Below are positions 24,343-63,942 of a stretch of DNA of 64,000 nt, piece after piece (within the stretch, counting starts at the first letter, position 1; the number at the start of each line of letters is the position of its first letter). The position numbers were made by a program, and so were the translations under genes. The stretch is from Elusimicrobia bacterium RIFOXYA12_FULL_51_18. Its GTDB lineage: Bacteria > Elusimicrobiota > Elusimicrobia > Elusimicrobiales > UBA9959. The DNA lies in assembly GCA_001800245.1 (NCBI GenBank), contig MGVA01000059.1:1810-65809 (forward strand). The letters are read 5' to 3'. The notes beneath the pieces are model-generated. The model was not told where the DNA came from and ran no database searches. It saw only the letters and a program-made list of their open reading frames with translations.

Positions 24343-24371
24343 AGTTGAAGTATCATTCTACACCATATTGA

Positions 24372-37695: not shown

Positions 37696-37868
37696 TTAAC
37701 AGTCTGCTGAAAAACCCCCTTTCGGGGTTTTTTGGCCTATTTTTGCCTACGCCTTTGCGCTGCTCAACTCACAGTCCCTAGTCGAGAATGCTCGTTTCGC
37801 ATCGCTTCGGCTCGGCTTCAAAATCCGCTCAAAATACCTCCGAGTGGGGTTTTTCAGCAGACTGTTAA
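37696..37868. repeat. MITE-like element bounded by perfect 23-bp inverted repeats (hairpin motif copy C)
   Basis: ttaacagtctgctgaaaaacccc at 37696-37718 is the exact reverse complement of 37846-37868. The left arm also forms aaaaacccc-ctttc-ggggttttt, a bidirectional terminator shape. The interior carries cctttgcgctgctcaac and tcgcttcgg blocks resembling copies A and B. Confidence 0.7.
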
Positions 37869-39625: not shown

Positions 39626-39741
39626 GGTTCGTTCATTCGTCAGAAGAGTTCTGTCAATCGCAAGCTCGTCCCTAAGTATGAGATCGTTGCCGTCCGAAGC
39701 GTAAGTAGTTAGAGTCTTTCATAACATTCATTGTTCCCTAA

Positions 39742-40443
39742 TCATAGACCCATAAATGTAACAGCCACTCCACACATTAAAACCGCGAAACCGGAGAGTG
39801 CATGCGAATACCTTTCAACCTTCCGGAGAGGCAATAGCTCAATCCCGCGCAAAGTCGCTAAAACCATGACCATCATTGTGGAGATAGTGGTGAGCGCGAA
39901 AACCGCCGTAACGGCGAGTACCCCGCTCATGCTGCTTTTGGCAGCCGGGTACATAAGCAGCGGGATAAGCGGCTCGCAGGGGCCGAAAACAAAAATCGTG
40001 AATAATATCCATGGAGTGATGTTAGCTTTTTTAGTGTCGTGGACGTGGGCGTGTTCCTCGGCGTGAGCGTGTGTATGAATATGCCTGAATCCGGCGTGAG
40101 CGTGCGAATGCTCGTGTTCCCTGGCTGAATATGCCTTCTTGATCCCCCAGATAAAATATAACAGGCCGAATACTACCAGCAGCCATCCGGCAATTCCGCC
40201 ACGGAAGGATTCTATGTTCTCCAGGCTGGTTACTTCCGCGCCGAGATAAACCCCGGCAAACCCCAATACTACCGAACTCCCGACATGACCAAGGCCGCAG
40301 ACTAATGTAATAACGCCGGTTTTCAAATAAGACCAGTCACGGGCTTTGGCCATTGCGATAAAGGGCACATAATGGTCAGGCCCGAGCAAGGTGTGAAAAA
40401 AGCCAATCGAAGCGGCAGTAATCACCAGAACGCTTGAATCCAT
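39742..40443 (-). CDS. Integral-membrane metal transporter with a His-rich loop (NicO/RcnA-like)
   Basis: Six TM segments, FHTLLGPDHYVPF near TM1, and a central loop SAREHEHSHAHAGFRHIHTHAHAEEHAHVHD. Confidence 0.5.
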   Translation of the reverse strand: MDSSVLVITAASIGFFHTLLGPDHYVPFIAMAKARDWSYLKTGVITLVCGLGHVGSSVVLGFAGVYLGAEVTSLENIESFRGGIAGWLLVVFGLLYFIWGIKKAYSAREHEHSHAHAGFRHIHTHAHAEEHAHVHDTKKANITPWILFTIFVFGPCEPLIPLLMYPAAKSSMSGVLAVTAVFALTTISTMMVMVLATLRGIELLPLRKVERYSHALSGFAVLMCGVAVTFMGL

Positions 40444-40496
40444 GTTGTCTCCTGGGATGTGTCTGTATTTTTATACTAGCATTTTCTTCTTCGGGC

Positions 40497-41920: not shown

Positions 41921-42379
41921 TCAGTATTTCACTAAACCCGAAACAAATTCTTTTATTTCATCGCGGACGCGGCGGTAATAAGCCAGGGCCTCTTCCTCAT
42001 TTTTGGCCGCTTTAGCGAGGAAGGGCGGGTCCTCAAAACTTTGATGCAGTTTACGGGCTTTGCCAAACCACACCGGACAGCTTTCACGCGCTTTGGCCGC
42101 TTGATGGGCATTGCCCTTGTGCGGCACTGGCATAGCCTTGTCGCAGACTGTCACCACAAGGTCAAAAGCGATATCCTTGAACTCGCTGACATGCTTTGCT
42201 CTGTGGGTGGAGATATCCACTCCGGCCTCGGCCATTACTTTGATCGCGCGCGGGTCCACGATGCCTGGGTTTGTCCCGGCGGAGTAAGCCTCAATAAGAT
42301 CCGGGTGCAGTTTCCTGGCCCAGCCTTCCGCCATCTGGCTGCGGCAGGAATTTCCCGTGCATAGAAAAAGGACTTTCAT
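41921..42379 (-). CDS. arsC: Arsenate reductase, LMW-PTPase/thioredoxin-coupled type
   Basis: MKVLFLCTGNSCRSQMAEGW P-loop. Start set at the ATG at 42379. About 13 extra residues sit between the VTVCD and SCPV cysteines. Confidence 0.85.
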   Translation of the reverse strand: MKVLFLCTGNSCRSQMAEGWARKLHPDLIEAYSAGTNPGIVDPRAIKVMAEAGVDISTHRAKHVSEFKDIAFDLVVTVCDKAMPVPHKGNAHQAAKARESCPVWFGKARKLHQSFEDPPFLAKAAKNEEEALAYYRRVRDEIKEFVSGLVKY

Positions 42380-47320: not shown

Positions 47321-47538
47321 CTATGTCCCCCCGCGCATCAGTTTTACTGGTCCGCCTTCTATTTTAAGCGCCTTGCCGTTCACACTACGGCATCGGCCAG
47401 CTTCCGCCTGGCGGAAGCGAGTATGTTGCCGAACGTCTGCCTGGAAACCTTCATGGCCGAGGCAGCCTTTTTCTGCTCTTTCTTGTCCAACTCTGAATGC
47501 TTTATATTGTGAGCCCAGCCGTATATGATATGCGGCAT
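47321..47538 (-). pseudogene. Frameshifted, N-terminally diverged DUF134-like HTH gene
   Basis: Minus strand reads MPHIIYGWAHNIKHSELDKKEQKKAASAMKVSRQTFGNILASARRKLADAVV*. A shifted frame then continues VNGKALKIEGGPVKL. Compare MGVSRQTFGNIINSARQKIADALVSGKSVQITGG in 58838..59248. Confidence 0.45.
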
Positions 47539-47623
47539 TGTTTGATGGTTAAAAGAGGCTGAGGGTGTCGCATATTTCTAGACTATGCCTGTGCCGTATC
47601 AAGCGCTATGCGCAACAGACGGC

Positions 47624-49039
47624 CTAAGTTTTAGGACCCGGCTTATAACGCCTTCCCTTCCCCTCCGGAACCAGCACGCTGATAAACATCCCATCGCCAT
47701 CGCGTTCAATATCAAACAGTACGCCTTCCGCCAGATTTACCGCATCGAAAACGTTTGGCATTTCGGCGAAGGATCCGACGGTGGTTCGATTCACCGCCCT
47801 GATTGTGTCGCCGCGTTTTAGATAGCCGAACAGCTTTGAGTCCGCGCTTATCCGCTCCACCACGGCCCCGCCTTCCTCAAAACGCAGATCCAGGCCCTCC
47901 CATGAATAGGCATTGCTTTTGTGTCCCGGCCGAACTTTGTCGGCTCTTCCTGAAGTGTAGATAACCGAAGAGTCACGGCCTGGCCGCTCAGCAAGCTTGA
48001 TCTTCTGTTTTTTAGTCAGCTTCCCGCTGATAATCGTCAGTTCCATGATATCACCCGGCCTCCGGGTATATGTCCGGTAAAAAAGGTCTTCCTCCTTCTC
48101 AATAGGCTCGCCGTCGCTTTCTGTTATAATGTCGCCCCTGGCTATCCCGGCCTCGTAGGCCGGGGAACCTTTAGCCACCGCGTTAACAATCCCACCGGAA
48201 GTTGTCTTCACTCCCAGCCGCGCCGCCATCACGGGGTCAAGTGCCGTAAGTGATATGCCAAGCCAGCCGCGTTTTACCTCTCTCCCGGCAAGCATATCAG
48301 GTAGGACGCTCCTGACCTCCGATGCAGGAATGGCGAACCCCATACCGGCAAAAGCCCCTGAGGGAGAGAAGATTGCTGCGTTGACGCCTATAACTCGGCC
48401 ATTCAGGTTCAGTAACGGTCCGCCGGAATTCCCCTGGTTGATCGCCGCATCGGTTTGTATCAGCTTCTCGTATTTCCGGCCTTCCACTTTTATGCCAGCG
48501 TTAAGCGCTGAAACTATGCCGGATGTGAACGTCTGCCTGAAACCGAATGGGTAGCCTACTGCCAGCGCAAAATCTCCTACTTTCGCTTCAAGCGGTTCCA
48601 GTTCTAGATAAGGAAACCGGTCGTTGGAATGTATCTTAAGCACTGCGAGGTCGAGCGCCGGATCTCCGCCGGAGAACGAAGCCATATATGTTTTTTCTTT
48701 CCCACCGGCATCCGCCACGGAAACCTTTATGCGGGAAGCTCCTTCCACTACATGATAATTTGTCAGGATATGGCCTTCCGGGTCTATAATTAAGCCGGAG
48801 CCCACGCCTTGGGTGTCATAGCGGTAGGTCCGCTCCCTGGGAATTATATAACCAAAAAAGAATTCCGGTTCTATAAACGTTTCGGCGTCTTCACGCACTA
48901 CTTTCAGGCTGACCACCGCCGGTTTGGCTTTGGCGGCGACCATATTGAAAGTTTGTTGGACTTTATATGCTTCCTCCTGAGTTCCGGCTGCAACGGAGAT
49001 GAAAAGGATTAACGCAGTAAACGCTGTTTTTTTAATCAT
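47624..49039 (-). CDS. HtrA/DegP-family periplasmic serine protease with PDZ domains
   Basis: GSGLIIDPEGHILTNYHVV (His), DLAVLKI (Asp), GNSGGPLLN (Ser), followed by two PDZ-like segments. Confidence 0.9.
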   Translation of the reverse strand: MIKKTAFTALILFISVAAGTQEEAYKVQQTFNMVAAKAKPAVVSLKVVREDAETFIEPEFFFGYIIPRERTYRYDTQGVGSGLIIDPEGHILTNYHVVEGASRIKVSVADAGGKEKTYMASFSGGDPALDLAVLKIHSNDRFPYLELEPLEAKVGDFALAVGYPFGFRQTFTSGIVSALNAGIKVEGRKYEKLIQTDAAINQGNSGGPLLNLNGRVIGVNAAIFSPSGAFAGMGFAIPASEVRSVLPDMLAGREVKRGWLGISLTALDPVMAARLGVKTTSGGIVNAVAKGSPAYEAGIARGDIITESDGEPIEKEEDLFYRTYTRRPGDIMELTIISGKLTKKQKIKLAERPGRDSSVIYTSGRADKVRPGHKSNAYSWEGLDLRFEEGGAVVERISADSKLFGYLKRGDTIRAVNRTTVGSFAEMPNVFDAVNLAEGVLFDIERDGDGMFISVLVPEGKGRRYKPGPKT

Positions 49040-51304: not shown

Positions 51305-51883
51305 TTAAAAGTCCGGGTCCTTAGCGAATAGCAGCAGTGGCGCGAAACTCAAACGCACATCCCCGTTCCGGGGCTCTGCCAGCCTCAAATCAATAAGTCC
51401 CTGCTTGGCATCCAGGCCGGGCCTGAATTTTTCAGCGACACTCCGGACAAGATCTTCGCGTAGATCAGCCATGCCCGCACCGGGAACAAAAGCGTGTTCG
51501 GTCAGGCTTTGCTTCTTAAGAGCTTTGGCAGGGGCGATGCGATCTGCGTCCATCGGCAGATTTCTGTCATGGTCCCGGTAGAGGTGTTTGCCGTTTGTGG
51601 TTCGATGCGTAACCAGGGACGGCCCGGTTTCAAAAAGAAGAATCTTCTGGACACCAGAGTTGTAGATGTGGGACTTTGCCGAAAGGGGCGGGTCGATTCT
51701 GGAGGCAGGGATCTCAAGAAGCTTGGAAACCTGCTTCTCTGTATCGGGAAGGCCGGACGTTGTCCCATCGTCATCAAGACCTATAAGCAACTCTCCGCCG
51801 TCCGCATTTGCAAAGGCTACCAGAGTTTCGGCTATTTCGGCGGCAATGTTCTTAAGATGTTTTATATTCCGGGCAACAACTGA
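51305..51883 (-). pseudogene. Fragment of an AlbA_2 (Schlafen-type) putative DNA-binding protein, truncated at both ends
   Basis: The open frame reads ...NIKHLKNIAAEIAETLVAFANADGGELLIGLDDDGTTSG...LIDLRLAEPRNGDVRLSFAPLLLFAKDP. There is no proper start upstream of AFANADGG, and the usual C-terminal ATPase-like domain is missing. Confidence 0.5.
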
Positions 51884-52098: not shown

Positions 52099-52433
52099 AA
52101 CACCCCGCGTACCGGTAAAGTGAGAATAATTCCACACCATGGGCCCAGGTATAAATATTCCGTAAGTTTCCCAGGTCAATCTGTAGAAAAGCATTTCCCC
52201 AGGAGCCATCCCATCCTGATAAGCCCGCGCTTGCCCATAATCCGGCTAGGTTCTTAAGGTACTGCTGATAATCCCCTTCCTAAGGGAAAAGGCAGGTCCA
52301 CCTCGCGCCCGTTCTTTATCCCGAGCTTAAACTTTTTTTGTTAACCAATTAGACTTGCGGGAACTTAGGGGTAAGGTCGGGTTCGACCTGGCTGGAACAT
52401 CTTTTGATGGCGGTTACGGAACAACGGTCCTTC

Positions 52434-53111: not shown

Positions 53112-53283
53112 TTTAATACTGCTCCGTTTTCTCATATTGCCACATATTTCCGTCCCCCGATCATTTCCCTGATAGATCTGGTCATGGCGCAATTTTTATT
53201 TTAGCAAATAAGCACGGCGGCCAGCGGGTAAGCTCGAGCCCCCCTCCTCGATCCCGTGGTGGGGCGGTCGACGCTTCATGGCG

Positions 53284-53348
53284 AAAAAAATGCCCTGCGT
53301 CCAAGCAGGGCGATCCGTCGGGCTACTAGATTAAATTTGGGGGGTGGC
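53284..53348 (+). repeat. 5' stub of the repeated HTH-gene module (copy 1); also a minus-strand terminator hairpin
   Basis: aaaaaaatgccctgcgtccaagcagggcgatccgtcgggc...aaatttggggggtggc parallels 59444-59548 of copy 2. The stem is gccctgc/gcagggc at 53292-53311. On the minus strand it is followed by a T7 run. Confidence 0.6.
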
Positions 53349-54042
53349 TTTCAGGCCTCAGTCATAACCTACTTTGCGTAACATCCCGAGGAATCTTTAT
53401 AAATACCGCTTTCCGGTCGTTTCCCTCAGGTTCCCCCATCCAGGACCGCGAGAAGCCGTCGCGGGCGTGGGGCCACGCGGCGCGGCCCCGCACCGCTCCT
53501 CTGCACCGCACGATAGCCGCACGGTCGGCCACGCTGCGCGGCCGCCCATGCTTGCCGCAGGAAAAAGGGTTCGCAGGCTCGGCACGTTGCGCCTTCGCTC
53601 TGCTCCAGCAGAAAAGAGGTGTTTCTCATACTCACCCCTTCGGGGCCAGGGCGCATACGCGCCCGCGCAACAGCCGGGTGTCCACCGGACACCGTGCGCC
53701 CTCCTTATGCGCGGCCTGCTGGCCGCTCCCGTCCGCCTTCGGCGGCCGTACAACGCAGAAAATTATTTCCCGCGCGCGCTGCAAAGAGTTGATGCCGGTG
53801 GCCACCATATTTATAAAACACCACCCCGGCGTCCGCTGCTGCAGTCGCCGCGGTGGTCTTTTCTGTTAATGTTTTGTCGCCACCGGAAGAGGCGGAAACT
53901 ACAAAACCATAAGGTAGGACCAGGCCTGGAGCTCTGGCCGCGTGGGGGCCGCCGCTCCCGTCCTGGCCCGCCTTACCTGCCCCCGGCCATTTATGATACG
54001 GCATAATTCCACACCCTCAAATAATCACAGCTAATCCCGTGG
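53349..54042 (-). other. ~690-nt non-coding, hairpin-dense tract (GC-rich core ~53430-53990); candidate structured RNA or palindromic-element cluster
   Basis: All six frames give only overlapping Arg/Pro/Gly/Ala-rich ORFs. Local hairpins occur at 53446-53464, 53635-53645, 53649-53664 and 53677-53693. Palindromes are ggtggccacc (53797-53806) and ccaggcctgg (53920-53929). Strand is inferred from the terminator at 53284-53311. Confidence 0.3.
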
Positions 54043-54375
54043 TTAATGGGTCCACTCAATAACCTTCACTTCCGCCCCTAACTTTTTTACGACGGCTTCC
54101 CTCATCTTTTCAAAGTGCGGGCACGGAAAGCCTATGGGGTTTCCATTCTTAATGCAGGAGGCGAACGCGATTATCTGCGCGCCGCGTTCCACCATCATTT
54201 TGGCCCTTGTGACCGCTTTCTTTCCTGGGCAGCCGCCGCATGAAACAAAGCCTATAATTTCCACGGGCCCGGTTTCGGCGAACGCGCATTTTCCCTCCTG
54301 CGCGATCTTGAAATCGGTGCTGCCGGGGCACATGTCCTCCGTTTGCTGGCATCGAATGATCCCTGCTTTCATCAT
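54043..54375 (-). CDS. CGGC-domain protein
   Basis: 110 aa with IIRCQQTEDMCPGSTDF and FVSCGGCPGKKAV motifs. Confidence 0.7.
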   Translation of the reverse strand: MMKAGIIRCQQTEDMCPGSTDFKIAQEGKCAFAETGPVEIIGFVSCGGCPGKKAVTRAKMMVERGAQIIAFASCIKNGNPIGFPCPHFEKMREAVVKKLGAEVKVIEWTH

Positions 54376-54431
54376 TTGTTCTTCCTTCGGGGTTTAGATC
54401 CCCGCCTCTTGGTGTTTATACTGTTCGGCGC

Positions 54432-54806
54432 TTAATGGCACCCGGTTGCGCCGTGATGCGCGCAGGCGCAGGCGGGGTCGGCTTCTTTAAGCTTGCCGGC
54501 TTGTAGTGCTTTTACAGCTTCGGCAACCGTGGTCAGTGGTACCAGATAAACTTTTATGCCGGCGGTCCGTAGGCCGTTTATCGCCCCGGCGCCCATTCCG
54601 CCCGCAAGCACCGCGTCCGGCTTCGCGTTCCCCACGGCCTTGAGCGGATTGCACATTCCGTGCTCATGGTCGAGATTCCCATTGTCTATGATCTCGCATT
54701 TAAGTGTTTCCGTGTCGCATAGCGTAAAGTACGGCGCGCTGCCGAAATGCCCGTAAACATTCGCCTTCAGTCCGTCTTTTGTTTCCGTGGGTATGCAGAC
54801 TTTCAT
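54432..54806 (-). CDS. NifB/NifX-family (dinitrogenase FeMo-cofactor-binding-like) small protein
   Basis: MKVCIPTETKDGLKANVYGHFGSAPYFTLCD...DAVLAGGMGAGAINGLRTAGIKVY. Length is 124 aa. Confidence 0.75.
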   Translation of the reverse strand: MKVCIPTETKDGLKANVYGHFGSAPYFTLCDTETLKCEIIDNGNLDHEHGMCNPLKAVGNAKPDAVLAGGMGAGAINGLRTAGIKVYLVPLTTVAEAVKALQAGKLKEADPACACAHHGATGCH

Positions 54807-54831
54807 TTTAGTTCTCCTAATGCCGCTGATT

Positions 54832-56136
54832 TTAAAAATAATACTTGGCCCTCAGTTCAACCTTGGTGCTTCCCGCTTTCTCCCCGAATTCCGTTCCGGA
54901 GGAGCCGGCCAGGAAGATGGCTTTCAGGCGGAGCTCAAGATTAGTGACCCGCGTCCACACTGTTTCGGGGGCAATAGAAAAACTATTATCACCCGCGTTG
55001 ATCATGGTGGTCAGCGCAGGGGTGAAGTAAAGAATCTTAAAAGGCTCCTGCTGGATTACCCGCAGATAAAAATACTCGCGCATGGGGTTTGCCGCGCCAT
55101 AACCGGAATTGCTTAAATCTGCGGCCTTTTGCATCAGCGCGGCGCTGCCTGTTCCCGTATAAGAAACATAGGCGGCATCGACGAAAGAAAAATAATCGGT
55201 CATAGCTTCATCCGAAAAGCCGCCGCCGTTATGGTAATATTCGGCTATGTAAGTTGCGTCTTTCTCGGTCTGGTAGCGCAAACCGAGCAGGTAACTTTTT
55301 GCGTCAAAGACTTTCTTTGTGGTATTGCCGTTTTTATCCGTTATGGTATGGGGATTATCCGCTATTAAAGCCGCCTCGCCGTGCACTTCGAAGTTGGTGG
55401 AAATATTCCGCGAGAAATCAGCCCCGTAAGCGGCCGGTTTGCTTCCTCTTGCGCGGTAGATCAGGTCGATGTCCGTGTCGTAATACAAAAAATACGCCTT
55501 GCATGCGAAGTCCAGATGATTCAAGCTGCCGAAGGTGTTGTTGAGATGTTCGTAAACCGGCAGGATAACCGGCGTAACTGACGCGGTTTTCAACTGCCCG
55601 TTAAAACTCCGGGTATAGTCGGCGGACAGCACCGCATAGCCCTCAAGCGGCAGCTCGGGGTCGTCCGGGTTTTTGGGGCGGTCTATCAACGCCGCCGGGT
55701 TCCAGGCGTAGCCCTTGCCCCAGCGCATCACCTTTTTCCCTGCGATTATATCCGCCTCTGAAGACGGTTTGACAGAAAGGTAACCCTCGTAAATCTGTAA
55801 ATCGCGGTCCCAGCCCTGGTAAGTGTTGTTTAGGTCGGAATTTATACGCAGATAGGCCCGTGAAATCCCGCGCTGATAGCTGCCTTCCAATTGAAGCTTG
55901 GAATTGTATTCATACGTGGTCCGTTCTTTGGCGTGGTTGTGAAATTTAAGTTTATATAGTGCGGCATCCCTGTCCATTGCGGCCAGCACCGGCCTGAACT
56001 CGGCGTAACCGTTCAGGCTGTACGGTTTCTTTTCCGTCTCGGAAACATCAAAAGAATAATCCTCGGCGGCGGCCGGCAGAAGGCCCGCCGCTGCGGACAG
56101 GAAAGCCAGGGCAATAAAAGGCCGGCGCGGGCTCAT
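54832..56136 (-). CDS. Putative outer-membrane beta-barrel protein
   Basis: Signal peptide, a Tyr/Gly-rich alternating sequence, and a C-terminal ...VELRAKYYF OMP signature. It has a 4-nt overlap with the upstream LolA-like gene. Confidence 0.55.
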   Translation of the reverse strand: MSPRRPFIALAFLSAAAGLLPAAAEDYSFDVSETEKKPYSLNGYAEFRPVLAAMDRDAALYKLKFHNHAKERTTYEYNSKLQLEGSYQRGISRAYLRINSDLNNTYQGWDRDLQIYEGYLSVKPSSEADIIAGKKVMRWGKGYAWNPAALIDRPKNPDDPELPLEGYAVLSADYTRSFNGQLKTASVTPVILPVYEHLNNTFGSLNHLDFACKAYFLYYDTDIDLIYRARGSKPAAYGADFSRNISTNFEVHGEAALIADNPHTITDKNGNTTKKVFDAKSYLLGLRYQTEKDATYIAEYYHNGGGFSDEAMTDYFSFVDAAYVSYTGTGSAALMQKAADLSNSGYGAANPMREYFYLRVIQQEPFKILYFTPALTTMINAGDNSFSIAPETVWTRVTNLELRLKAIFLAGSSGTEFGEKAGSTKVELRAKYYF

Positions 56137-56864
56137 CTTAATGTTTCCAGTTTAGACATAAAAGGAACCGTGAAGATCTCGTCTTTCAGATCGCGTTTTT
56201 TTATCTTCGAGAAGATCATCACGGATTTATAGCCCTTATACAGCGGGCTTTCGGTCTCTATCACGGAAGGCCGCACAATTCCCCCGCCGAAGTCCTTGGT
56301 TTCTTTGAAATACAGTGTTTTAATGAGCATCAGTTTTTCGGTAAGGCACTCGACCTTAACCGGCAGCCTGGTCTTTTTGTCCACCCACATATTAAGCCGG
56401 TCATAGGCCACGGTCTTTGTTTTGGCTTTGATGTGCAGGAGGTATTGCTCGCCTTTGTCTTCCATCTGATCGACCGTGTACTCCGCGCCGAAGTCTATCT
56501 TTAGAATGTCGGCATTATTGAATACCCCGCCGGTGGCGGATTGCAGGCTGGTGATGCGTATTGGCTTGCCCACATTGGGGATATACAGCCACATATTATC
56601 GCCGAGCCGCAGCATCCCGCGCCCTTTGTCGCTGGCTGGCGAAAGGAATAGCCCCGCCACTTTCTCGTTCCCTTTACGGACCATGTAGAGAACGAATTCT
56701 TTTTTGCGCCCGTCCGGTTCGATGTTTATCAGTTTTCGGTACATTTCATAAGACGGCGGCTCCAAATTGCGGTCAACTTCCCGGAGCAGTTCGTTGCCAT
56801 CCACGGCATGGGCGGCGGCGCCCATCAGGGCGATAAGTGAAACTGCCAATATTTTCCTAAGCAT
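56133..56864 (-). CDS. Outer-membrane lipoprotein-sorting (LolA-like) protein
   Basis: GNELLREVDRNLEPPSYEMY...FLSPASDKGRGMLRLGDNMWLYIPNVGKPIRIT matches the LolA_like family as I recall it. Confidence 0.65.
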   Translation of the reverse strand: MLRKILAVSLIALMGAAAHAVDGNELLREVDRNLEPPSYEMYRKLINIEPDGRKKEFVLYMVRKGNEKVAGLFLSPASDKGRGMLRLGDNMWLYIPNVGKPIRITSLQSATGGVFNNADILKIDFGAEYTVDQMEDKGEQYLLHIKAKTKTVAYDRLNMWVDKKTRLPVKVECLTEKLMLIKTLYFKETKDFGGGIVRPSVIETESPLYKGYKSVMIFSKIKKRDLKDEIFTVPFMSKLETLR

Positions 56865-56873
56865 CGGGTTCTC

Positions 56874-58112
56874 CTATATGCTCTTTAACGCTTTTACGGG
56901 TTCCAGCCGGGAGGCTTTCCAGGCGGGCTGTAAGCTGCCGAATACCGCTACGGTCAGCACGATAGCCGAGATAATGGAGAAGTCCCCCGGGTTCACGGAG
57001 GGCGTCAGAACAAAACCCTCGCGCATACCGAAAGAGAACGTGATATGCAGCAGCCTTACCCCGTAAATTACCGCTACACTAATGATATTGCCGGCTATAA
57101 CTCCGGCCAGGCCAAGGCACAACCCTTCCGACATGAACATGGCGAGGATGGTGCCCGGCTGGGTCCCGATAGCGGCGATAGTCCCGATCTCCCTGGTCCG
57201 CTCGTAGACGGACATTATCATCACGTTCATAATGCCGATAAGCACTATGGCCACCAGCATTATCTTTACAAGCAGCGTCATCATGTCTATCATGGTGGCG
57301 ATGCTGGCGAACGGGGAAAGTTTCTGCCATGGATGTATCTCAAAGACCGGCTTGCCGTCGTTGGTCTTTTCCTGCGCGAAGGCTTTTGTCAGCGAGGCGA
57401 AGGCCGGCTCCAGCTTGCTGAAGTCCTTTAAGCGTATGGCGATCTCACTTATTTCCGGCGGGTCCATGCGCAGCAGTTCCGTGGCGTCGCTCAAAAGAAT
57501 GTAGCCGTCGCGGCCGCCGGGGCCGGGTGCGGTTTCTATTATGCCGCCCACGGTGAATTGCTTGCCGTTGACGGAGCCGTCTTTGTTCGTGGCCACCAGC
57601 ACCACGGTAGCGCTGGTTTTAAGTTTCATGCCGCGCGCCAGCAGTTCCGGCACCAATACCTCGCCAGGCTTAAGCTGGCTGGTCCCTTCAATAACCCTTG
57701 AGGGAAGGAGCGGTACGGTTTTAAATTCCTCTGCCGGATTAATAGCCGCCAAGCGGATATTTGTGGTTTCGGAGAAGTTGCTTATAATTCCGCCGAGTTT
57801 TATCCTGGTCGAGTAAGATTCCACCTGCGGGTTGGCTTTAAGTATGGCCTCGGCCCGCGTCATCTGCTCCGCCGTCAGGTTCATGTTCAGCGGCACGTTC
57901 TCCACCGACACCAGGTAGCCTTTCCTATGCACCTGGATATGGCCGAGCATGGAGTCGGTTATCTGCGAGATGATCAGGTTCTTGTACGAGTTGGTAGCCG
58001 CCATGTACACCTGTACGAAAACTACGCCCACGGCGATAAGCGAGACTATCAGCAAGGACCGCCGGGCGTACCTGTGCGTGTTGCGGACCGCCATTTTAAA
58101 TATCTTAAGCAT
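56874..58112 (-). CDS. ABC transporter permease, FtsX/MacB type
   Basis: [23 protein letters not shown]1, a large periplasmic domain, then three C-terminal TM segments. Start moved to the ATG at 58112, giving an 8-nt overlap with the ATPase. Confidence 0.8.
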   Translation of the reverse strand: MLKIFKMAVRNTHRYARRSLLIVSLIAVGVVFVQVYMAATNSYKNLIISQITDSMLGHIQVHRKGYLVSVENVPLNMNLTAEQMTRAEAILKANPQVESYSTRIKLGGIISNFSETTNIRLAAINPAEEFKTVPLLPSRVIEGTSQLKPGEVLVPELLARGMKLKTSATVVLVATNKDGSVNGKQFTVGGIIETAPGPGGRDGYILLSDATELLRMDPPEISEIAIRLKDFSKLEPAFASLTKAFAQEKTNDGKPVFEIHPWQKLSPFASIATMIDMMTLLVKIMLVAIVLIGIMNVMIMSVYERTREIGTIAAIGTQPGTILAMFMSEGLCLGLAGVIAGNIISVAVIYGVRLLHITFSFGMREGFVLTPSVNPGDFSIISAIVLTVAVFGSLQPAWKASRLEPVKALKSI

Positions 58113-58809
58113 TGGTGTTGCCTCCGGTGCGGGTTGCCCCGACAAGTTCTCCGTCTTCAAGCGTGAAGACGCGCTCGGCCTCGCCGATTATTTTCTGGTC
58201 GTGCGTGGAGAATATGAAGGTGGTGCCGGTCTCGGCGCGCATTTTCTTCATCAGTTCCAGTATCAGGTAGGCCGTTTTGTGGTCGAGGTTAGCGGTTGGT
58301 TCGTCCGCAAGCACCAGTTTGGGGCGGGTAACCAGCGCCCTGGCTACGGCCACGCGCTGTTTCTGCCCGCCGGAAAGCTGGTCCGGGTATTTGTTGAACT
58401 GGTCGGTCATGCCGACTTCTTCCAACAGGGCCATTATCCGTTTTTTTCTTTCGTCTTCCGGCAGCGGGTTTACTATCAGAAGCGGGTATTCAATATTCTC
58501 GTAGACGGTCAGCACCGGGATCAGGTTGAAGTCCTGGAAAACGAAACCGATGTGCTGGCCCCGGAAGCGGGCCCCGGCTTTGCGGTCCAGTTTGCCTGCG
58601 TCCATGCCGCAGACCTCCAGCACGCCGCCGGTGGGTTTATCCAGGCAGCCTATAAGGCTTAGTAGCGTGGTCTTGCCGCTGCCGGACGGGCCCACAAAAG
58701 CTGCGAAATCGCCGGGCTCCAGCGTGAAGTTAAGGCCTTTGAGCGCTTCAACTTTGGTCTCGCCGGCTATGTAATATTTTTTTAAATCTTTTCCCGATAT
58801 GATTGGCAT
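58105..58809 (-). CDS. ABC transporter ATP-binding protein (LolD/MacB-type)
   Basis: Walker [10 protein letters not shown], signature [15 protein letters not shown], Walker [13 protein letters not shown]. Confidence 0.9.
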
Positions 58810-58837
58810 ATGGTCTCCTTTTAGTGCAAAGCTGCCG

Positions 58838-59248
58838 TTATTTGGTTTTATTTGCGGTTGATTTCTTCTTCGCGGCCGAAAGGTTTATCTTTTGCGTATC
58901 AGAACAGCAGCGCTTGCCGCTTTGCCCGGCGTGGTTGCCGCAACCGCAGCCGCCATTGGTAAGTTTTACCGTGCCGCCGGTTATCTGTACGGACTTGCCG
59001 CTTACCAGCGCGTCCGCTATCTTCTGACGGGCGGAGTTTATAATGTTGCCGAAAGTCTGGCGCGAGACGCCCATTTTCCTGGCCGCGTCTTCCTGATACA
59101 GCCCTTTGGCGTCGGCCAGGCGGAGCGCTTCGAATTCGTCCAGCTTAAGGAGTATCTCGCCTTTCGCCTGCGCGGTCTTGCCGTCCGGGCCGAAACAGGA
59201 GCAGGCGGGCTTAGCGTGGACTTTTCTGCATTTTCTGGACTCGCACAT
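58838..59248 (-). CDS. DUF134 (UPF0251) HTH protein with a Cys-rich C-terminal extension
   Basis: MCESRKCRKV...LKLDEFEALRLADAKGLYQEDAARKMGVSRQTFGNIINSARQKIADALVSGKSVQITGG, then GGCGCGNHAGQSGKRCCS. The ATG at 59248 is preceded by ggaggag. Confidence 0.75.
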   Translation of the reverse strand: MCESRKCRKVHAKPACSCFGPDGKTAQAKGEILLKLDEFEALRLADAKGLYQEDAARKMGVSRQTFGNIINSARQKIADALVSGKSVQITGGTVKLTNGGCGCGNHAGQSGKRCCSDTQKINLSAAKKKSTANKTK

Positions 59249-59269
59249 ATACTCCTCCAAAGAAGCCTG

Positions 59270-59283
59270 TTGGCATATGCCAA
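59270..59283. promoter_or_regulatory. Perfect 14-bp palindrome upstream of the DUF134 operon
   Basis: ttggcatatgccaa, 22-35 nt upstream of the ATG at 59248. Confidence 0.4.
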
Positions 59284-59436
59284 TAGCAATTGTAGGCCTT
59301 TCCCATCCGGTAAGTCAATAAATTAACGTGTCGTTGCGTCTAAAAAGTATTGGGAATTGGGGTCAGGTCGTGATTCTTGACTGCCCGCTCCTAAGCACGG
59401 ATAGATTGTATAGATTATGCCGACTGGGGGCAACGC

Positions 59437-60027
59437 GTGGAAATAAAAAATGCCCTGCGTACAAGCAGGGCGACCCTTCGGGCCGTTAAATGTAGAATTG
59501 GCGCGCAAAAATTAAGTAAAAAACAACAATTTCAAATTTGGGGTGGCCGGTCCGACTGTCTTCGAACAATTTCTCGGAAATATACGGCGGATTTACGTCA
59601 ACAACCTGACTTTTGCCTGATAGACGAATCGTCGTTCGAAGTTGTAATCGGCCCTAACGGCAAAAAGATGATGTTTTCACCGGAAGAGGCCCAAACAATC
59701 CGGAACCGCCGGGTCAAGTCCCCCCGCCCGCCCAGAATCCAGCAAGATCTGCTGGAAGCCCGCCAACTCAAAGACCGCCTTGAAAAAACGCCGGGCTTGA
59801 CAAAAACCGCCCTTGCCGCCGAACTGGGCATCTCTCGCTTTGAGCTGATCCTCCGCCTGAACCTCCTGCGGCTTGCACCGGAGATCCAGGCTGAGATCGC
59901 GGCCATGCCGCCGAGTGTGTCTGTGCGCTGCCAGATATCGAAACGCGCCCTGCGGAATATTGCCGTAATCTCTGATAGCGCGCGGCAGAAAATAGAGTTT
60001 AACAGACTGCTCGGCTCAGAAGGGTAG
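59437..60027 (+). CDS. Repeated HTH protein, copy 2 (ParB/KorB-like helix-turn-helix); start uncertain
   Basis: LTKTALAAELGISRFELILRLNLLRLAPEIQAEI. It is a near-duplicate of 62341..62958, and the differences upstream of the first ATG (59668) are synonymous, so translation probably starts earlier (GTG at 59437?). Confidence 0.6.
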   Translation: MEIKNALRTSRATLRAVKCRIGAQKLSKKQQFQIWGGRSDCLRTISRKYTADLRQQPDFCLIDESSFEVVIGPNGKKMMFSPEEAQTIRNRRVKSPRPPRIQQDLLEARQLKDRLEKTPGLTKTALAAELGISRFELILRLNLLRLAPEIQAEIAAMPPSVSVRCQISKRALRNIAVISDSARQKIEFNRLLGSEG

Positions 60028-60044
60028 GAGCCGTCGGGTATTTA

Positions 60045-61106
60045 TTACTCGTCTCGCTTTTTTCGCTTCGGCTTATGCTCAAGCTTTTTGACTTGGTTCT
60101 CAAGTTCTTCCATTTCCGCTTCCTGCGCGACAATATCCTCGCGGTGTATGCGGGCGGAATGAAAAATCTCGTATTGTTTCAGCGCAAAGGCTTCGGCGAT
60201 TTCTTTTTTGACCTTGCCGGCATTGCTCAGAATGGCCTTACGGTTGAATTTCAGGAATTCGTCCAGTAAAGAGCGCCAGTCCTTCATGTATAACGGCACC
60301 CCCTCCTCGGCGCGTTCCTCTGCGAAGTCCAGGTACATGGTTACGAGCCGGTCCAGCTTCTTGATCTCATCGGTATTGAGGTAATTCTTGGCGATAGTCA
60401 CATCCGCCTTGCGGACTTTGCCAGCCTTCCAAGAGGTAAGCCCCATGTTATCCTTTCTTGCGTCGGCGCGTTCATGGATAATTTCCGGAGCCGTCTTGCC
60501 CGTTATCGCCCAATGGAGCTTGTTCTGCACAATCTGGAAAAACTCCTGGGTTTCCGCTGCGTTGGGGTCGTAGTCTACCGCCAAACTATAAATATCCCGC
60601 ACCTTCTGATAAAACCGCTTTTCAGAGGCGCGGATGTCGCGTATACGCTCAAGCAGTTCATCAAAATAATCCGCACCGAACTCCTTCGGGTTCTTCAAGC
60701 GCTCGTCATCCATCACAAAGCCTTTGATCAGGTATTCACGGAGTCGCTCCGTAGCCCACCGCCGGAACTGGGTGCCCCTAGGTGATTTTACTCTATAACC
60801 TACGGCGAGAATCATGTCCAGGTTATAAAAAACAATGCGGCGTTGAACCTGGCGCCCGCCCTCATTTTGAACTGTCAAGTATTCCTTGACAGTTGCCGTT
60901 TCGGAGAGTTCCTGTTCCTCAAGCACATTGTTAATATGAAGGCTTATGTTTTGTTTGCTTGTTTGGAACAACTCGGCTATCTGAATCTGAGAAAGCCATA
61001 CAGTCTTATCAGCGAATCGCACCTGCAGACGACTCTGGCCATCCTCAGTCTGGTAAAACAGTATTCCAGATTGATTGGGTGCTTTTTCAGGAAAGTTTTT
61101 GGTCAT
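60045..61106 (-). CDS. RhuM-family (Virulence_RhuM) protein
   Basis: ILFYQTEDGQSRLQVRFADKTVWLSQIQIAELFQTSKQNISLHINNV...FYNLDMILAVGYRVKSPRGTQFRRWATERLREYLIKGF. Confidence 0.8.
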   Translation of the reverse strand: MTKNFPEKAPNQSGILFYQTEDGQSRLQVRFADKTVWLSQIQIAELFQTSKQNISLHINNVLEEQELSETATVKEYLTVQNEGGRQVQRRIVFYNLDMILAVGYRVKSPRGTQFRRWATERLREYLIKGFVMDDERLKNPKEFGADYFDELLERIRDIRASEKRFYQKVRDIYSLAVDYDPNAAETQEFFQIVQNKLHWAITGKTAPEIIHERADARKDNMGLTSWKAGKVRKADVTIAKNYLNTDEIKKLDRLVTMYLDFAEERAEEGVPLYMKDWRSLLDEFLKFNRKAILSNAGKVKKEIAEAFALKQYEIFHSARIHREDIVAQEAEMEELENQVKKLEHKPKRKKRDE

Positions 61107-61143
61107 ATGTTTTGAGGGGGCATATTATCATATCCGGCGCAAA

Positions 61144-62241
61144 CTACCGGTCCCATATCCTTATTTTCTCCGCAGTATCTGGATATGAAAGCACATCTGT
61201 GCTGTCTATGAACTGGTCAATTGCTCCGGCATTCGTTTTTATAGCTTTGATTGCTTTGCTTTGAATTTTACTTTTGAATGCCTCGGCGAATTTCACTGCA
61301 TGAATAACACGATATGGTCGCTCATGGAATAAAGAGACTTTATGTGGCAGAGGGTGGATGATATGTTTCGAGTTACACAACTTGGCGACTATCGCGTATG
61401 CTTCCGATAAATGCTTTTCTCTTTTCCTCCAGGTCTCCGCGCTCAATATTTTGTTGAAAACCGGAATAAGGGATTTTGAGGGTTTGAGCGCTAAGAAAGC
61501 AGTGCCGAGCCATTTAGAGTACGGCGCGTACTCCCGCTCTAATAGGAAGCATAATCGCATCAGATCTCTGATGATTCTTGCTGCGACGATTCGCGAGCCA
61601 AGTTCGTCTCCTACATCTCCGCAGCGGCCCACGAATGCTTCTTCCTGCGAAATCCGAATCCATTGGGCGGCGAGCATGTAAAGCCAGACATCGCGCGGGT
61701 AAAAACGAAACTTCTTTCTTATTCTGCGCAATTCGCGAAGTCCATCATAAAACACCTCTCCTCGTACTATTTCCAGTAATCTTTGCTGGGGAAAAGCCAG
61801 CCAGTCAGATACGGAAATCTTTTGAAAGGGATCAACCTTAAGCCGCGTTTCAATAAACGATTTTGTTGTTAAAATAGCCACCCTGTGGTTCACCGGACCA
61901 GATGTAATATTCAGCGGAGTGCGCACCCCCTTGGAGTCTGGGGCGCTGAAATTGGTGGGATAACCTAAAAAACTGTGTGGAAGGTTCGTGGAAAGCACTT
62001 TTGCGATTTTCTCTTTAATTTCGTTGTGACTGGTTTTACTGAGGAAGATAAAAACTTTGGGCCCCCAGTCATGGTCACGTGAAACTGGGGTGTCATAGCC
62101 TAAAACTTCAGACCCTGCCCCTAGCAGGCCTGCGGAATAATTCAAGCGTGGAAAACGGATGTGCAAAATTGGGGCAACAGTTTTTTTGTAGAAAAGCCTG
62201 CTTAATTTAATGCCAGAGATAAATTGCGCCGGTTTATCCAT
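61144..62241 (-). CDS. DUF4037 domain protein (Pol-beta-like nucleotidyltransferase motif)
   Basis: LSRLFYKKTVAPILHIRFPRLNYSAGLLGAGSEVLGYDTPVSRDHDWGP matches my recollection of the DUF4037 N-terminus (G-S...D-x-D). Confidence 0.65.
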   Translation of the reverse strand: MDKPAQFISGIKLSRLFYKKTVAPILHIRFPRLNYSAGLLGAGSEVLGYDTPVSRDHDWGPKVFIFLSKTSHNEIKEKIAKVLSTNLPHSFLGYPTNFSAPDSKGVRTPLNITSGPVNHRVAILTTKSFIETRLKVDPFQKISVSDWLAFPQQRLLEIVRGEVFYDGLRELRRIRKKFRFYPRDVWLYMLAAQWIRISQEEAFVGRCGDVGDELGSRIVAARIIRDLMRLCFLLEREYAPYSKWLGTAFLALKPSKSLIPVFNKILSAETWRKREKHLSEAYAIVAKLCNSKHIIHPLPHKVSLFHERPYRVIHAVKFAEAFKSKIQSKAIKAIKTNAGAIDQFIDSTDVLSYPDTAEKIRIWDR

Positions 62242-62340
62242 AATTTACACATCGTTGACTTTTAACTGCGATTCCCCTTTGCGGCGCATACTTGGATAGG
62301 CATCGCAACGGGCGCCTAAAACACCCTTGACGTTCATTAT

Positions 62341-62958
62341 ATGATACTTGGCAGGCCGGTTTCCGGGGCTTGGGGTAGTGTGGCCCAACTGGAAGGATTG
62401 TTCGCTTACCGTCAAAAATGGGGTCCCTGGTCCGACGGTAAACGAACAATTTCCGACCATTTTGACCCGGTTTCTGAACAAAAAAGCGATTTTTGCCTTA
62501 TAGACGAATCGTCTTTCGAAGTAGTAATCGGTCCTAACGGCAAAAAGATCATGCTTTTCCCGGAAGAGGCTCAGGCGATCCGAGCCCGCCGGACCAAGTC
62601 CCCCTGCCCGCCCCGGATTCAGCAGGACCTGCTGGAAGCCCGCCAACTCAGAGACCGCCTTGAAAAAACTCCGGGTCTGACCAAAACCGCCCTTGCCGCC
62701 GAACTGGGCATCTCCCGCTTTGAGCTGATCCGCCGGCTGAATCTACTGCGCCTCGCACCCGAGATTCAGGCGCGCATAATGGCCTTGCCGCCGACCTCTC
62801 ACAGGTGCCCGATATCGAAGCGAACATTGCGGCAGATTACCATAATCCCCGATTATCAACGCCAAATGCAAAGGTTCGACAACCTACTGAAGGACCTTGG
62901 TGACCGGCAGAGTAAAATAAAATTTGGCGCCATGGCCTGGAGTGGATTCGACCAATAG
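62341..62958 (+). CDS. Repeated HTH protein, copy 3; start uncertain
   Basis: LTKTALAAELGISRFELIRRLNLLRLAPEIQARI. The sequence is highly similar to copy 2 from ~62440 onward. Its 3' end overlaps the convergent kinase gene by 75 nt. Confidence 0.6.
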   Translation: MILGRPVSGAWGSVAQLEGLFAYRQKWGPWSDGKRTISDHFDPVSEQKSDFCLIDESSFEVVIGPNGKKIMLFPEEAQAIRARRTKSPCPPRIQQDLLEARQLRDRLEKTPGLTKTALAAELGISRFELIRRLNLLRLAPEIQARIMALPPTSHRCPISKRTLRQITIIPDYQRQMQRFDNLLKDLGDRQSKIKFGAMAWSGFDQ

Positions 62959-63942
62959 TTTGCTGCCGTGGTTTTCAATAAGTTCACGTGATACTTTCAA
63001 TCCCAAGCCGAAGCCTTTGGCCGCATGTTTGCCCTGACTGGTACGGTAAAAACCGGAGAATATAGCGCTCAGGTCATTCTTGTCTATCCCGGGACCGGTA
63101 TCTTCTATGGATACCCTTGCCATATTGGCAGGGTAGTCTTCCATCTTTATGGCTACTATAATGTGGCCACCGGTTGGGGTATATTTAATGGCGTTTCCAA
63201 TAAGGTTCCCCATAACCAGGGAGAGAGCGTCTGGGTCTGCTTCCAGGGGGATGGGTATATCCGGGAAATCAGTGATTATTTCCACACCTTTTTCTTCACC
63301 CAGCGGCTTAATAATATCTAGGGAGTGTTTGACTATTTCGCGCAGTTTGATCGGTTTTCGCTCCAGCGTAAATTTCCCGGCGTCCAAGCGGGCGTTCGCA
63401 AGGAATGTTTTCACTGTGCGGGTCATCGCCCGGTGTGTTTGTGTCAGAATCCCATACAGTTTGCGCCGATGTTCGGATATATTGTCGCCGTCATCCTCTT
63501 CAAGAAGAGTGGATGCCAGGTTTATGCTGACCAGCGAGTTGTTGAACTCATGGCTGACTATGGACATCATTTCCGCCTTTAGTTTTGATGATGTCAACGC
63601 ATCTCTTAATGCCATCCTCAAACGTACGAGGAGGACGCCGGAAATGAGAAAAAAGCTCGCTCTGACCAGTGCGTTCCAATAAGGGATAAGGTGATGGGGA
63701 TAAGTTTTTCCGCCCAGTACCGTGTCCATAATAAGCCAGATGGTTGCGGCGATAAGGGAGGCTACAATCGCAAATGTCTCATCGGTGTGCCACGCGGTAA
63801 ATAGAACTGGGACAAGGTAAAAAATGGAAAAACTGATGTCCGTTCCCGTGACGTGGTCTAGATATGCCACCACGCACAACATTAAAATGCCGACTATGAT
63901 GGTGCGATACCGGTGTATATCGAAATACGCAGACAAAATCAT
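62884..63942 (-). CDS. Membrane sensor histidine kinase
   Basis: Four N-terminal TM helices. H-box MMSIVSHEFNNSLVSI. HATPase motifs GNLIGNAIKYTPTGG, EDTGPGID and GFGLGLKVSRELIE. Confidence 0.8.
   Translation of the reverse strand: MILSAYFDIHRYRTIIVGILMLCVVAYLDHVTGTDISFSIFYLVPVLFTAWHTDETFAIVASLIAATIWLIMDTVLGGKTYPHHLIPYWNALVRASFFLISGVLLVRLRMALRDALTSSKLKAEMMSIVSHEFNNSLVSINLASTLLEEDDGDNISEHRRKLYGILTQTHRAMTRTVKTFLANARLDAGKFTLERKPIKLREIVKHSLDIIKPLGEEKGVEIITDFPDIPIPLEADPDALSLVMGNLIGNAIKYTPTGGHIIVAIKMEDYPANMARVSIEDTGPGIDKNDLSAIFSGFYRTSQGKHAAKGFGLGLKVSRELIENHGSKLLVESTPGHGAKFYFTLPVTKVLQ

Follow-up and report, generated by a model that had tools for sequence, protein, structure and literature searches.

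Which kind of gene recurs near one end of the 64,000-nucleotide (nt) stretch of DNA from Elusimicrobia bacterium RIFOXYA12_FULL_51_18 analysed here (contig MGVA01000059.1, positions 1,810 to 65,809; referred to below as the window), and what has placed its copies between blocks of unrelated genes? The original prediction, made from this sequence alone, described a helix-turn-helix (HTH) gene with two intact copies and a third reduced to a stub, and saw in it the boundary component of a recombination hot spot or modular cassette array. The two plus-strand open reading frames (ORFs) are indeed present, at 59437..60027 (copy 2, 196 amino acids) and 62341..62958 (copy 3, 205 amino acids). We consider it highly probable, however, that the module represents the 3′ portion of a gene that encodes a large serine recombinase (LSR, or integrase), carries the attachment site attP in its own frame and is severed by integration into a tRNA gene, and that the window from 53.3 to 64 kb, together with 0.9 kb beyond it, consists of relic elements. 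The notion of a hot spot with modules bounding blocks of cargo stands; the boundary genes would be severed integrase tails and not components of an array. The window belongs to a 175-kb scaffold, and the contig L001 corresponds to the window from position 52341 onward.

Probable integrase origin of the module

The related contig L025 contains an intact ORF of 704 amino acids in which the module forms the C-terminal ~180 residues. Its Pfam domains are those of an LSR, namely Resolvase (E = 1.6e-40), Recombinase (1.7e-14) and Zn_ribbon_recom (9e-13), and the Phage_integrase domain of tyrosine recombinases is absent from it in Pfam. When this protein was used as a tblastn query, copy 2 aligned with residues 538–696 (59533–60009; 75% identity, E = 3e-60) and copy 3 with residues 503–696 (62329–62886; 71% identity, E = 3e-69). 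Residues 1–502 have no tblastn match anywhere in the window or in L001, and the window copies consequently lack the catalytic resolvase domain. Copy 2 can be described as a 3′ gene fragment comprising linker and ParB-like HTH (59533..60027, plus strand), and copy 3 as a 5′-deleted gene with ~40 codons upstream of the attachment (att) core in addition to the HTH tail (62329..62958, plus strand). By this comparison, each window copy is the last ~160–195 codons of an LSR gene and not an independent regulator gene. The earlier statement that the window holds no recombinase is correct for the catalytic domain, but both ORFs are themselves fragments of a recombinase gene.

In seven independent full-length homologues (P0032–35, P0039, P0043 and P0053), the module ORF is collinear and in frame with an LSR body. 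The protein P0029, of 542 amino acids, is 100% identical to residues 1–542 of the L025 LSR and stops there. A second pair of short and full forms is given by P0042 (542 amino acids) and P0035 (743 amino acids), which are 97% identical over residues 1–540 and then diverge; the context of P0035 is of phage type: immediately ahead of it is a large terminase gene, and its tail is followed directly by PIN, DndB and methylase genes. Throughout the clade, short forms of ~531–560 amino acids terminate in translated tRNA 3′ ends (WGG*, WLRD*, WLPD*, WLPGLDSNQ...), and full forms of 700–750 amino acids read through into the linker and HTH domain. P0036 ends with TGG CTG CGG GAC TAG inside tRNA-Gln. The tRNA-Gln target and the second short/full pair indicate that the split-integrase design recurs across the clade. 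A profile search with the tail returned 169 cluster representatives at E ≤ 1e-10, nearly all of them orphan ORFs of 90–350 amino acids, and a single full-length fusion was found among the best 150 matches. Such scarcity is expected if the integrated state prevails in most genomes. A scan of the IMG/VR phage database found no relatives.

One further full-length LSR with tail (707 amino acids, L062:10001–12124) sits uninterrupted within a chromosome contig of 365 kb, flanked by a Prim-Pol gene and a series of small ORFs. A type I restriction-modification (RM) system and a tyrosine integrase are nearby, and there is no tRNA within 10 kb. This gene could be a reconstituted tandem junction, or belong to an element integrated by another route.

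The two window copies had been taken for near-identical. Their identity is 84% between 59599–59898 and 62479–62778, and falls to 78% when the comparison runs from the core almost to the end, which makes them diverged paralogues. The count of five differences in the 60 nt from 59608 and from 62488, all at synonymous third positions (D, L, S, V and G), is exact. Over the conserved core (amino acids 57–155 of copy 2), 61 codons are identical, 26 differ synonymously and 11 non-synonymously, with differences by codon position of 9/7/29; the ratio of non-synonymous to synonymous substitution rates (dN/dS, Nei–Gojobori) between the copies is 0.33. Purifying selection, as proposed, is apparent in this core, but upstream of amino acid 57 the differences are spread evenly over the codon positions (12/11/9). 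The coding conservation claimed upstream of the first ATG is likewise true only of the open frame, the signature of selection being invisible there. In copy 2, the sole in-frame start upstream of the conserved core is a GTG at 59437, beyond the hairpin described below, and the next is an ATG inside the conserved region; homologous tail gene calls begin at differing places. Conservation ahead of the first ATG is accounted for by read-through from the integrase body and does not call for an unusual start. The tail family is small and restricted to Elusimicrobiales metagenome bins.

An attachment site within the reading frame

L025 and L057, the latter a contig carrying P0029, share 97.6% nucleotide identity up to ...CAAAAATGGGGTGGC / ...GTCAAAAATGGGGTGGC. 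Past this stretch, L025 reads TGTTCCGAC / TGTTCCGACAGCAATCGAACAAT and continues into the tail, and L057 reads TGACGGGATTTGAACC, which is tRNA-His (ARAGORN, 11618–11693) and the source of the TGA stop. The two sequences cease to be homologous precisely at TGGGGTGGC, which is the tRNA-His 3′ end ...GCCACCCCA in reverse complement, and attP therefore lies within the integrase ORF. In L025 the site is ~54 bp long, with imperfect inverted arms, ATTGTTCGATGACAGTC and GACAGCAATCGAACAAT, that match at 14 of 17 positions. The attP of an LSR is usually ~50 bp in length and has imperfect inverted arms around a central crossover, so that ~54 bp is a canonical size. The two contigs differ by a flank exchange of the attP × attB type at a short common core (P–core–P′ in L025, P–core–tRNA in L057).

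In the P0029 contigs L057 and L058, and in a 79%-identical relative represented by L059–L061, a prophage-like element abuts tRNA-His. Its gene order is Prim-Pol/D5 primase, AAA_24, HNH, PDDEXK, LexA-like repressor, small ORF and 542-residue LSR. At the occupied sites of L057 and L059 tRNA-His is followed by Memo/AMMECR1, the same chromosomal neighbour as on the window scaffold. The 542-residue fragment keeps every canonical LSR domain and is probably not inactivated by integration. The unintegrated or reconstituted gene encodes a protein of ~700–750 amino acids, composed of Resolvase, Recombinase, zinc-ribbon, coiled-coil, att-site linker and ParB-like HTH tail. Integration at the extreme 3′ end of tRNA-His, with TGGGGTGGC as the core, leaves the first 542 codons beside the tRNA at attR, where the tRNA supplies the TGA stop. 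The tail, with the P′ arm TCCGAC-N6-CGAACAAT before it, would move to the far end of the element (attL) and adjoin the accessory genes there.

Read in this way, copy 2 would be an attL junction made up of terminator flank, core, P′ arm and tail. Its junction (59534..59570, plus strand) consists of the core AAATTTGGGGTGGC (59534–59547) and the P′ arm TCCGACTGTCTTCGAACAAT (59551–59570), without a P arm to the left, and homology to the integrase gene begins at this junction (LSR amino acid 538). A terminator-like hairpin flank lies upstream on the minus strand (59445..59483). Copy 3 contains a complete attP-like site (62397..62450, plus strand) with P arm ATTGTTCGCTTACCGTC, centre AAAAATGGGGTCCCTGG and P′ arm TCCGACGGTAAACGAACAAT; the arms match at 16 of 17 positions as an inverted repeat, in the same architecture as the L025 attP, and the centre is a variant with GGTCCC, not GGTGGC. 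The stretch L001:10013–10084 is 87.5% identical to the L057 integrase coding sequence just upstream of the core. Copy 3 may thus be the remnant of a once-intact junction in which the integrase body has been deleted to ~40 codons before the core. All tail copies retain a conserved P′ arm, and a scan for the arm motif hit only 59551 (plus), 62431 (plus) and 62397 (minus), three sites against 0.43 expected. An invertible switch, considered as the 18-nt motif also occurs inverted, was dropped: the inverted copies are the P and P′ arms of attP, and the junctions map to tRNA-His.

The stub had been described as the first ~65 nt of a third gene copy. It is real, but it consists of a minus-strand terminator-like hairpin and an att core. 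The flank (53285..53323, minus strand) contains the hairpin GCCCTGC-N6-GCAGGGC (53292–53311) with a T-run and is 92% identical to 59445–59483 over 39 nt; a terminator scan ranks this hairpin and the one ahead of copy 2 highest among the minus-strand terminator-like sites of the region. It sits 21 nt from the core AAATTTGGGGGGTGGC (53333..53348, plus strand), where homology with copy 2 stops at ...GGTGGC. The GGGTGGC in this core is the reverse complement of the acceptor 3′ strand of tRNA-His, and downstream of it there is neither a P′ arm nor an HTH ORF. The flank probably represents the sequence that natively follows tRNA-His, with its terminator, that is, the B-arm side of attL, and the stub could represent flank and core with everything rightward replaced. 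A similar stub occurs at L007:5900–5945, where a hairpin (aaaaatccccgac...gtcgaggattttt) and a partial core, aaagtaggcgg, are followed by unrelated sequence; this stub shares 91% identity with the flank of module L009B.

The tRNA-His gene of the scaffold lies on the minus strand at window-equivalent 64856–64929 (L001:12516–12589), 856 nt past the window end, and is followed to the right by POTRA and then Memo/AMMECR1. On its other side is an ORF of 175 amino acids with a Pfam Recombinase domain, which we call REC (window-equivalent 64152–64679, L001:11812–12339), and a displaced P-arm relic (L001:12450) with a core (L001:12506). After REC, ~180–210 nt of non-coding DNA are conserved in L001, L015 and L035 and end at GGGTGGC, where the tRNA follows in L001 and L015, and a P′ arm and tail ORF in L035. 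(L035 and L009 overlap at 100% identity and are hence one genome, G2, which is ~77% identical to the window genome.) REC-type proteins of 141–175 amino acids are also encoded at L015:14882–15340, L035:406–828 and L022:3957–4421, always beside an att site. They have a strong ribosome-binding site, start with MPYWKKM and end in the first half of the Pfam Recombinase domain only, with no catalytic domain. The REC N-terminus is homologous to the small ORF (58–80 amino acids, itself a candidate directionality factor) preceding int in intact prophages (E = 3e-11). REC is a candidate directionality factor or regulator. The idea that REC is a recent deletion derivative of the integrase was rejected, since a BLAST comparison with the L025 LSR was not significant.

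L015 shows a single clean element, reading flank, TTGGGGGTGGC, P′ arm, tail, cargo of methylase, PDDEXK and SIR2 genes, REC, TTGGGGTGGC and tRNA-His, and bounded by TTGGGG(G)TGGC repeats. This “type II” lineage (window, L015 and L035) has lost the integrase body. The spacer of the P-arm relic co-varies with that of the tail-side P′ arm, being TGTCTT in L001 and copy 2 and ACTAAT in L015, and in L035 the variant TTAGAACA is present in both arms. This co-variation implies that the copy 2 P′ arm and the P-arm relic at tRNA-His likely bound one element, and copy 2 and the tRNA-proximal relic probably delimit a single non-autonomous element of ~5.3 kb. The original prediction had suggested looking for an associated recombinase or transposase beyond 64 kb. 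Relics do lie there, in the form of REC and tRNA-His, but no catalytic part is found within 10 kb, and the missing recombinase is the module itself. Excision that regenerates an ATG start at the core, as the arrangement in L035 would suggest, is not general, as the reconstructed L015 junction yields no ATG.

The HTH tail and competing explanations

The ParB/KorB-like HTH assigned to the module (LNLLRLAPEIQ) is supported by the fold, but the Pfam HTH_ParB match (E = 2e-3) is below the gathering score: PF17762 gives 18.4–18.5 bits on the window tails against a cut-off of 22.6, and is precomputed on full-length P0034 and P0039. In an AlphaFold2 model of the copy 3 ORF, residues 1–55 are disordered, which fits an att site translated together with a linker, and residues ~90–190 are helical with pLDDT >90. 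The best 29 hits of a Foldseek search against the PDB were Noc, Spo0J or ParB structures (best E = 0.014, probability 1.0, template-modelling score 0.6 normalised to the Noc DNA-binding domain), which gives modest support. The fold thus matches the ParB/Noc/Spo0J/KorB group over residues ~90–190, and LNLLRLAPEIQ resembles the region of the ParB recognition helix; unlike those proteins, the tail has no CTPase domain and is attached to a recombinase. There is no ParBc hit in Pfam for a ParB/Srx CTPase domain, and the model contains only a beta-hairpin and helices.

Positional orthologues of the tail in L007B and L009A have a dN/dS of 0.22 (dS 0.51), compared with 0.02–0.12 for neighbouring genes, and most tail copies keep the frame from core to stop, about a third being disrupted by frameshift or truncation (L011B, L042, L007A, L022 and L023). 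Severed tails show moderate purifying selection and could for that reason still be expressed. In the integrase, the tail may serve as an additional DNA-binding domain that only the episomal form carries and that possibly tunes directionality or regulation. We put forward, tentatively, that an LSR clade of Elusimicrobiota and some other bacterial phyla, with attP in its own ORF and the extreme 3′ ends of tRNA genes as its targets, reversibly strips off a ParB-like domain on integration as a built-in sensor of the integration state, and that the severed tail is selected at attL. The architecture has good support; the regulatory role of the tail and of the orphan fragments is the hypothetical part. 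If so, the sensor could set directionality or immunity, and the tail would persist as a separate prophage or host factor.

The closest competitor accepts the same origin and holds that orphan tails are expressed as stand-alone proteins with a role in the lysogen or host, for instance in binding P′ arms and thereby preventing further recombination, or in regulating neighbouring accessory genes, so that the modules would be domesticated. The dN/dS of 0.22 and the frames open from core to stop agree with this, as do the 169 orphan-tail cluster representatives called as genes, the conservation of the P′ arm, the ATG exactly at the core in L035 and the several homologues that start with MGPWSD or MGGRSD. 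The selection signal, however, could predate severing and come from active integrases in independently acquired elements; the constraint is weaker than that of the neighbours, a third or so of the copies are disrupted, and copy 2 lacks a plausible start or ribosome-binding site. We regard domestication as rather unlikely, though a serious contender.

The severed-integrase origin itself has to be weighed against several observations that do not sit easily with it. A dN/dS of 0.22 speaks against relics that are wholly dead. None of the tRNAs in the sequences compared matches the core variant GGTCCC of copy 3, and this origin does not account for the duplication of the terminator flank at the stub and copy 2. 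The P-arm relic at the tRNA-proximal end is 47 nt from the core, unlike in a canonical attP. No catalytic integrase part is present in the window or the 10 kb beyond, and local activity cannot be inferred from it; pairing of attL and attR has been demonstrated only for the non-autonomous element of the L015 type. In G2, REC is on the other side, in an apparent circular permutation relative to the window genome. Finally, according to PMC3783163, serine integrases normally recombine attP with attB only. Simple repeated integration would then not suffice to explain tandem arrays, for which attB-like sites would have to be regenerated, or pseudo-sites or homologous recombination be involved.

The array could instead have come about without serial site-specific integration, through homologous recombination or segmental duplication among scattered tail relics by which blocks such as that of the CGGC to DUF134 genes were shuffled. 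In its favour, the two flank copies (53285–53323 and 59445–59483) bracket a 6.1-kb housekeeping-like block, the order in the window genome and G2 differs by the apparent circular permutation, and attL and attR are normally spared by serine integrases (PMC3783163). Recombination inside modules of 500 bp would not, however, yield junctions within a few nucleotides of the att core in many independent copies, and we judge this explanation improbable.

In the cassette array of the original prediction, the HTH ORF would be an autonomous gene bounding an integron- or shufflon-like array whose recombinase is encoded elsewhere. Directly oriented modules separated by unrelated cargo are indeed found repeatedly (in the window, L007, L011/L034, L009 and L037), and one module side varies between related genomes. 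Against this, the ORF is collinear with the LSR body in the seven full-length proteins, the junctions map to the tRNA 3′ end and copy 2 is without a canonical start near the conserved region. No integron-type feature (IntI or another Phage_integrase gene, attC-like repeats) occurs in the window region or 10 kb beyond, and the 12 contigs that carry copy 3 all have the same arrangement, with no population variants among them. The pairs of short and full integrases already largely refute the model, which we hold to be very improbable.

That the small ParB-like HTH proteins are ordinary paralogous regulators of the minus-strand operon to their left can be all but dismissed: the divergent arrangement with a left-hand operon in the window, L007, L009, L011 and L015 and the purifying selection on the HTH domain would suit it, but the left neighbours differ by locus, the left is the non-homologous side of the junction, a terminator hairpin and not a promoter-type region separates the operon from copy 2, the 55 disordered N-terminal residues correspond to att DNA, and the five copies named above are frameshifted or truncated.

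Known systems, cargo and neighbouring DNA

Canonical LSRs (phiC31, Bxb1, A118 and TP901-1) share with the integrases described here the Resolvase, Recombinase and zinc-ribbon domains, an attP of ~50 bp with inverted arms and a small ORF beside int; in contrast, their attP is intergenic, their targets are protein genes or intergenic sites, and no ParB-like HTH is removed by integration. Island accretion at tRNA genes, with cis-mobilizable element (CIME)-type relics, produces tandem elements at one attB in which the older ones lack an integrase, and is usually driven by tyrosine recombinases at long identical cores. As in such accretion, the cargo of the present relics includes many genes for defence and toxins (RhuM, Fic, zeta toxin, RM and SIR2), but their repeated marker is an integrase coding fragment. 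In the myxophage Mx8 (intP/intX), reportedly described by Tojo in 1996 and Magrini in 1999, attP is said to lie in the 3′ part of int, with a tRNA target and a changed C-terminus of the prophage integrase; that enzyme is a tyrosine recombinase, and the exchange concerns a short C-terminal part.

The “suicidal” archaeal integrases of the SSV1 type have attP in their ORF, and integration into a tRNA gene splits the gene to opposite ends of the element, the att site being translated and tandem integration restoring the gene (PMC7253208, PMC8371274). They are tyrosine recombinases, reported as restricted to archaea (PMC8371274), and their split leaves two inactive pseudogene halves. The system described here has in common with them the attP within the integrase ORF and the splitting of the gene in a tRNA gene; it differs in that the enzyme is a bacterial LSR whose 542-residue part retains the canonical catalytic and DNA-binding domains, only the C-terminal HTH being removed. 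Mycobacteriophages (BPs, Brujita and Mab clusters) have the attP core in an ORF beside int, whose 3′ end is removed and remains at the other prophage end, and form tandem prophages at one attB (PMC4557955, PMC9934374). There too the attP core is within a phage ORF and tRNA integration removes the 3′ end, but it is a repressor gene that is split, by an integrase of the tyrosine family, and the sequence removed is a short ssrA-like degradation tag, in contrast to the serine integrase found here and its tail of 160–200 amino acids with a folded HTH domain.

A literature search for serine integrases with an intragenic attP found no description, although absence there is not proof of absence, and tRNA genes are stated not to be known targets of serine integrases (PMC7192596). 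The self-splitting LSR design thus seems not to have been described previously for this enzyme class. A bacterial serine-integrase clade that combines splitting of its own gene with tRNA targeting stands against the statements in PMC8371274 and PMC7192596. As serine integrases are major tools of genome engineering and the control of their directionality is an active question, a change of the C-terminus upon integration offers a testable new control principle, and the clade supplies a set of tRNA-targeting attP/attB pairs. For annotation, small HTH proteins listed as “hypothetical”, in 169 clusters or more (E ≤ 1e-10), become readable as integrase tails that mark attL ends, and the limits of prophages and defence islands in little-studied phyla can then be placed to the nucleotide.

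The neighbouring genes named in the original prediction (RhuM, DUF4037, CGGC, DUF134 and HisKA/HATPase) are as it stated, by Pfam. Right of the stub core, a tract of 60–70% GC (flanks ~50%) extends over 53349..54042 up to the CGGC gene; between 53360 and 54040 it has no Rfam match and no convincing ORF, and in G2 its position is held by an intact tail ORF and five genes. For the window, Rfam at the gathering threshold gives no structured RNA and ARAGORN no tRNA; when 53200–54100 was scanned by E-value, the sole hit was a chance match to a miRNA. The block between stub and copy 2 (54043..59260, minus strand) comprises CGGC, NifX-like, 434-residue, TP_0789-like, MacB/FtsX, ABC ATPase and DUF134 genes (Pfam). 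It is syntenic with L035:6224–11148 (77.7%), and its operon from NifX to DUF134 lies between two modules in G2 too, which indicates that the arrangement is old; the block is either the cargo of an old element or captured chromosomal DNA.

To the right of copy 2 follow, on the minus strand, a RhuM-family gene (60045..61106, Pfam E = 8e-117) and a DUF4037 gene (61144..62241, Pfam E = 1e-35). A minus-strand histidine kinase gene (62884..63942; HATPase_c, 5.5e-28, and HisKA), convergent with copy 3, overlaps its end by 75 nt, as had been noted; lying between copy 3 and REC, it is either cargo or a relic. All three genes may be element cargo. The rule that cargo lies on the strand opposite to the module is not general, since the L015 cargo occupies both strands. 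Across loci, the genes beside tails include RhuM, DUF4037, Fic, zeta toxin, RM, SIR2, PIN and DndB, and this defence-type cargo suggests that the accessory locus of the elements adjoins attL. We infer that relics of integrative elements carrying such cargo have accumulated in this region at tRNA-His.

Related genomes vary in their genes at the module boundaries, one side being variable and the other conserved. L007 and L009 share a segment running from core and tail over a 63-residue ORF and TreT to DUF1646 at 85.5% identity; homology starts exactly at the core, and the DNA to the left is unrelated. In L011, L012 and L013, which are three independent assemblies, the contigs end ~150 nt after the same tail ORF, consistent with repeat-induced breaks at multi-copy modules.

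Elsewhere in the window, several stretches have counterparts in these genomes. Positions 51312–51856 (minus-strand ORF 51305..51790) are 93% identical to L009:2303–2848, a gene inside a primase/helicase island of G2, against an identity of ~77% for the two genomes elsewhere, and look like a 5′-truncated fragment of a recently exchanged mobile gene; 47523–47675 match L009:1199–1366 at 84%. A 799-residue ORF in L011/L012/L034, a few kb from two tail modules, is 91% identical to 21952–24369, well above background identity. The segments 39738–40488 (80%) and 42162–42376 (69%) are homologous to G2 genes directly beside a tail module (L035:2305–3052 and 2082–2296), and the same genes accordingly lie beside cargo in one genome but at a distance of 20 kb in the other. 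At 738–1323 (also 300–2277), a repeat with a period of 51 nt occurs in eight in-register copies, together with a 31-nt motif present four times; they probably belong to the coding region of a repetitive surface protein. A 50-nt inverted repeat, 78% complementary, is formed by 37696–37745 and 37819–37868, 73 nt apart, and each of its arms contains a terminator-like hairpin.

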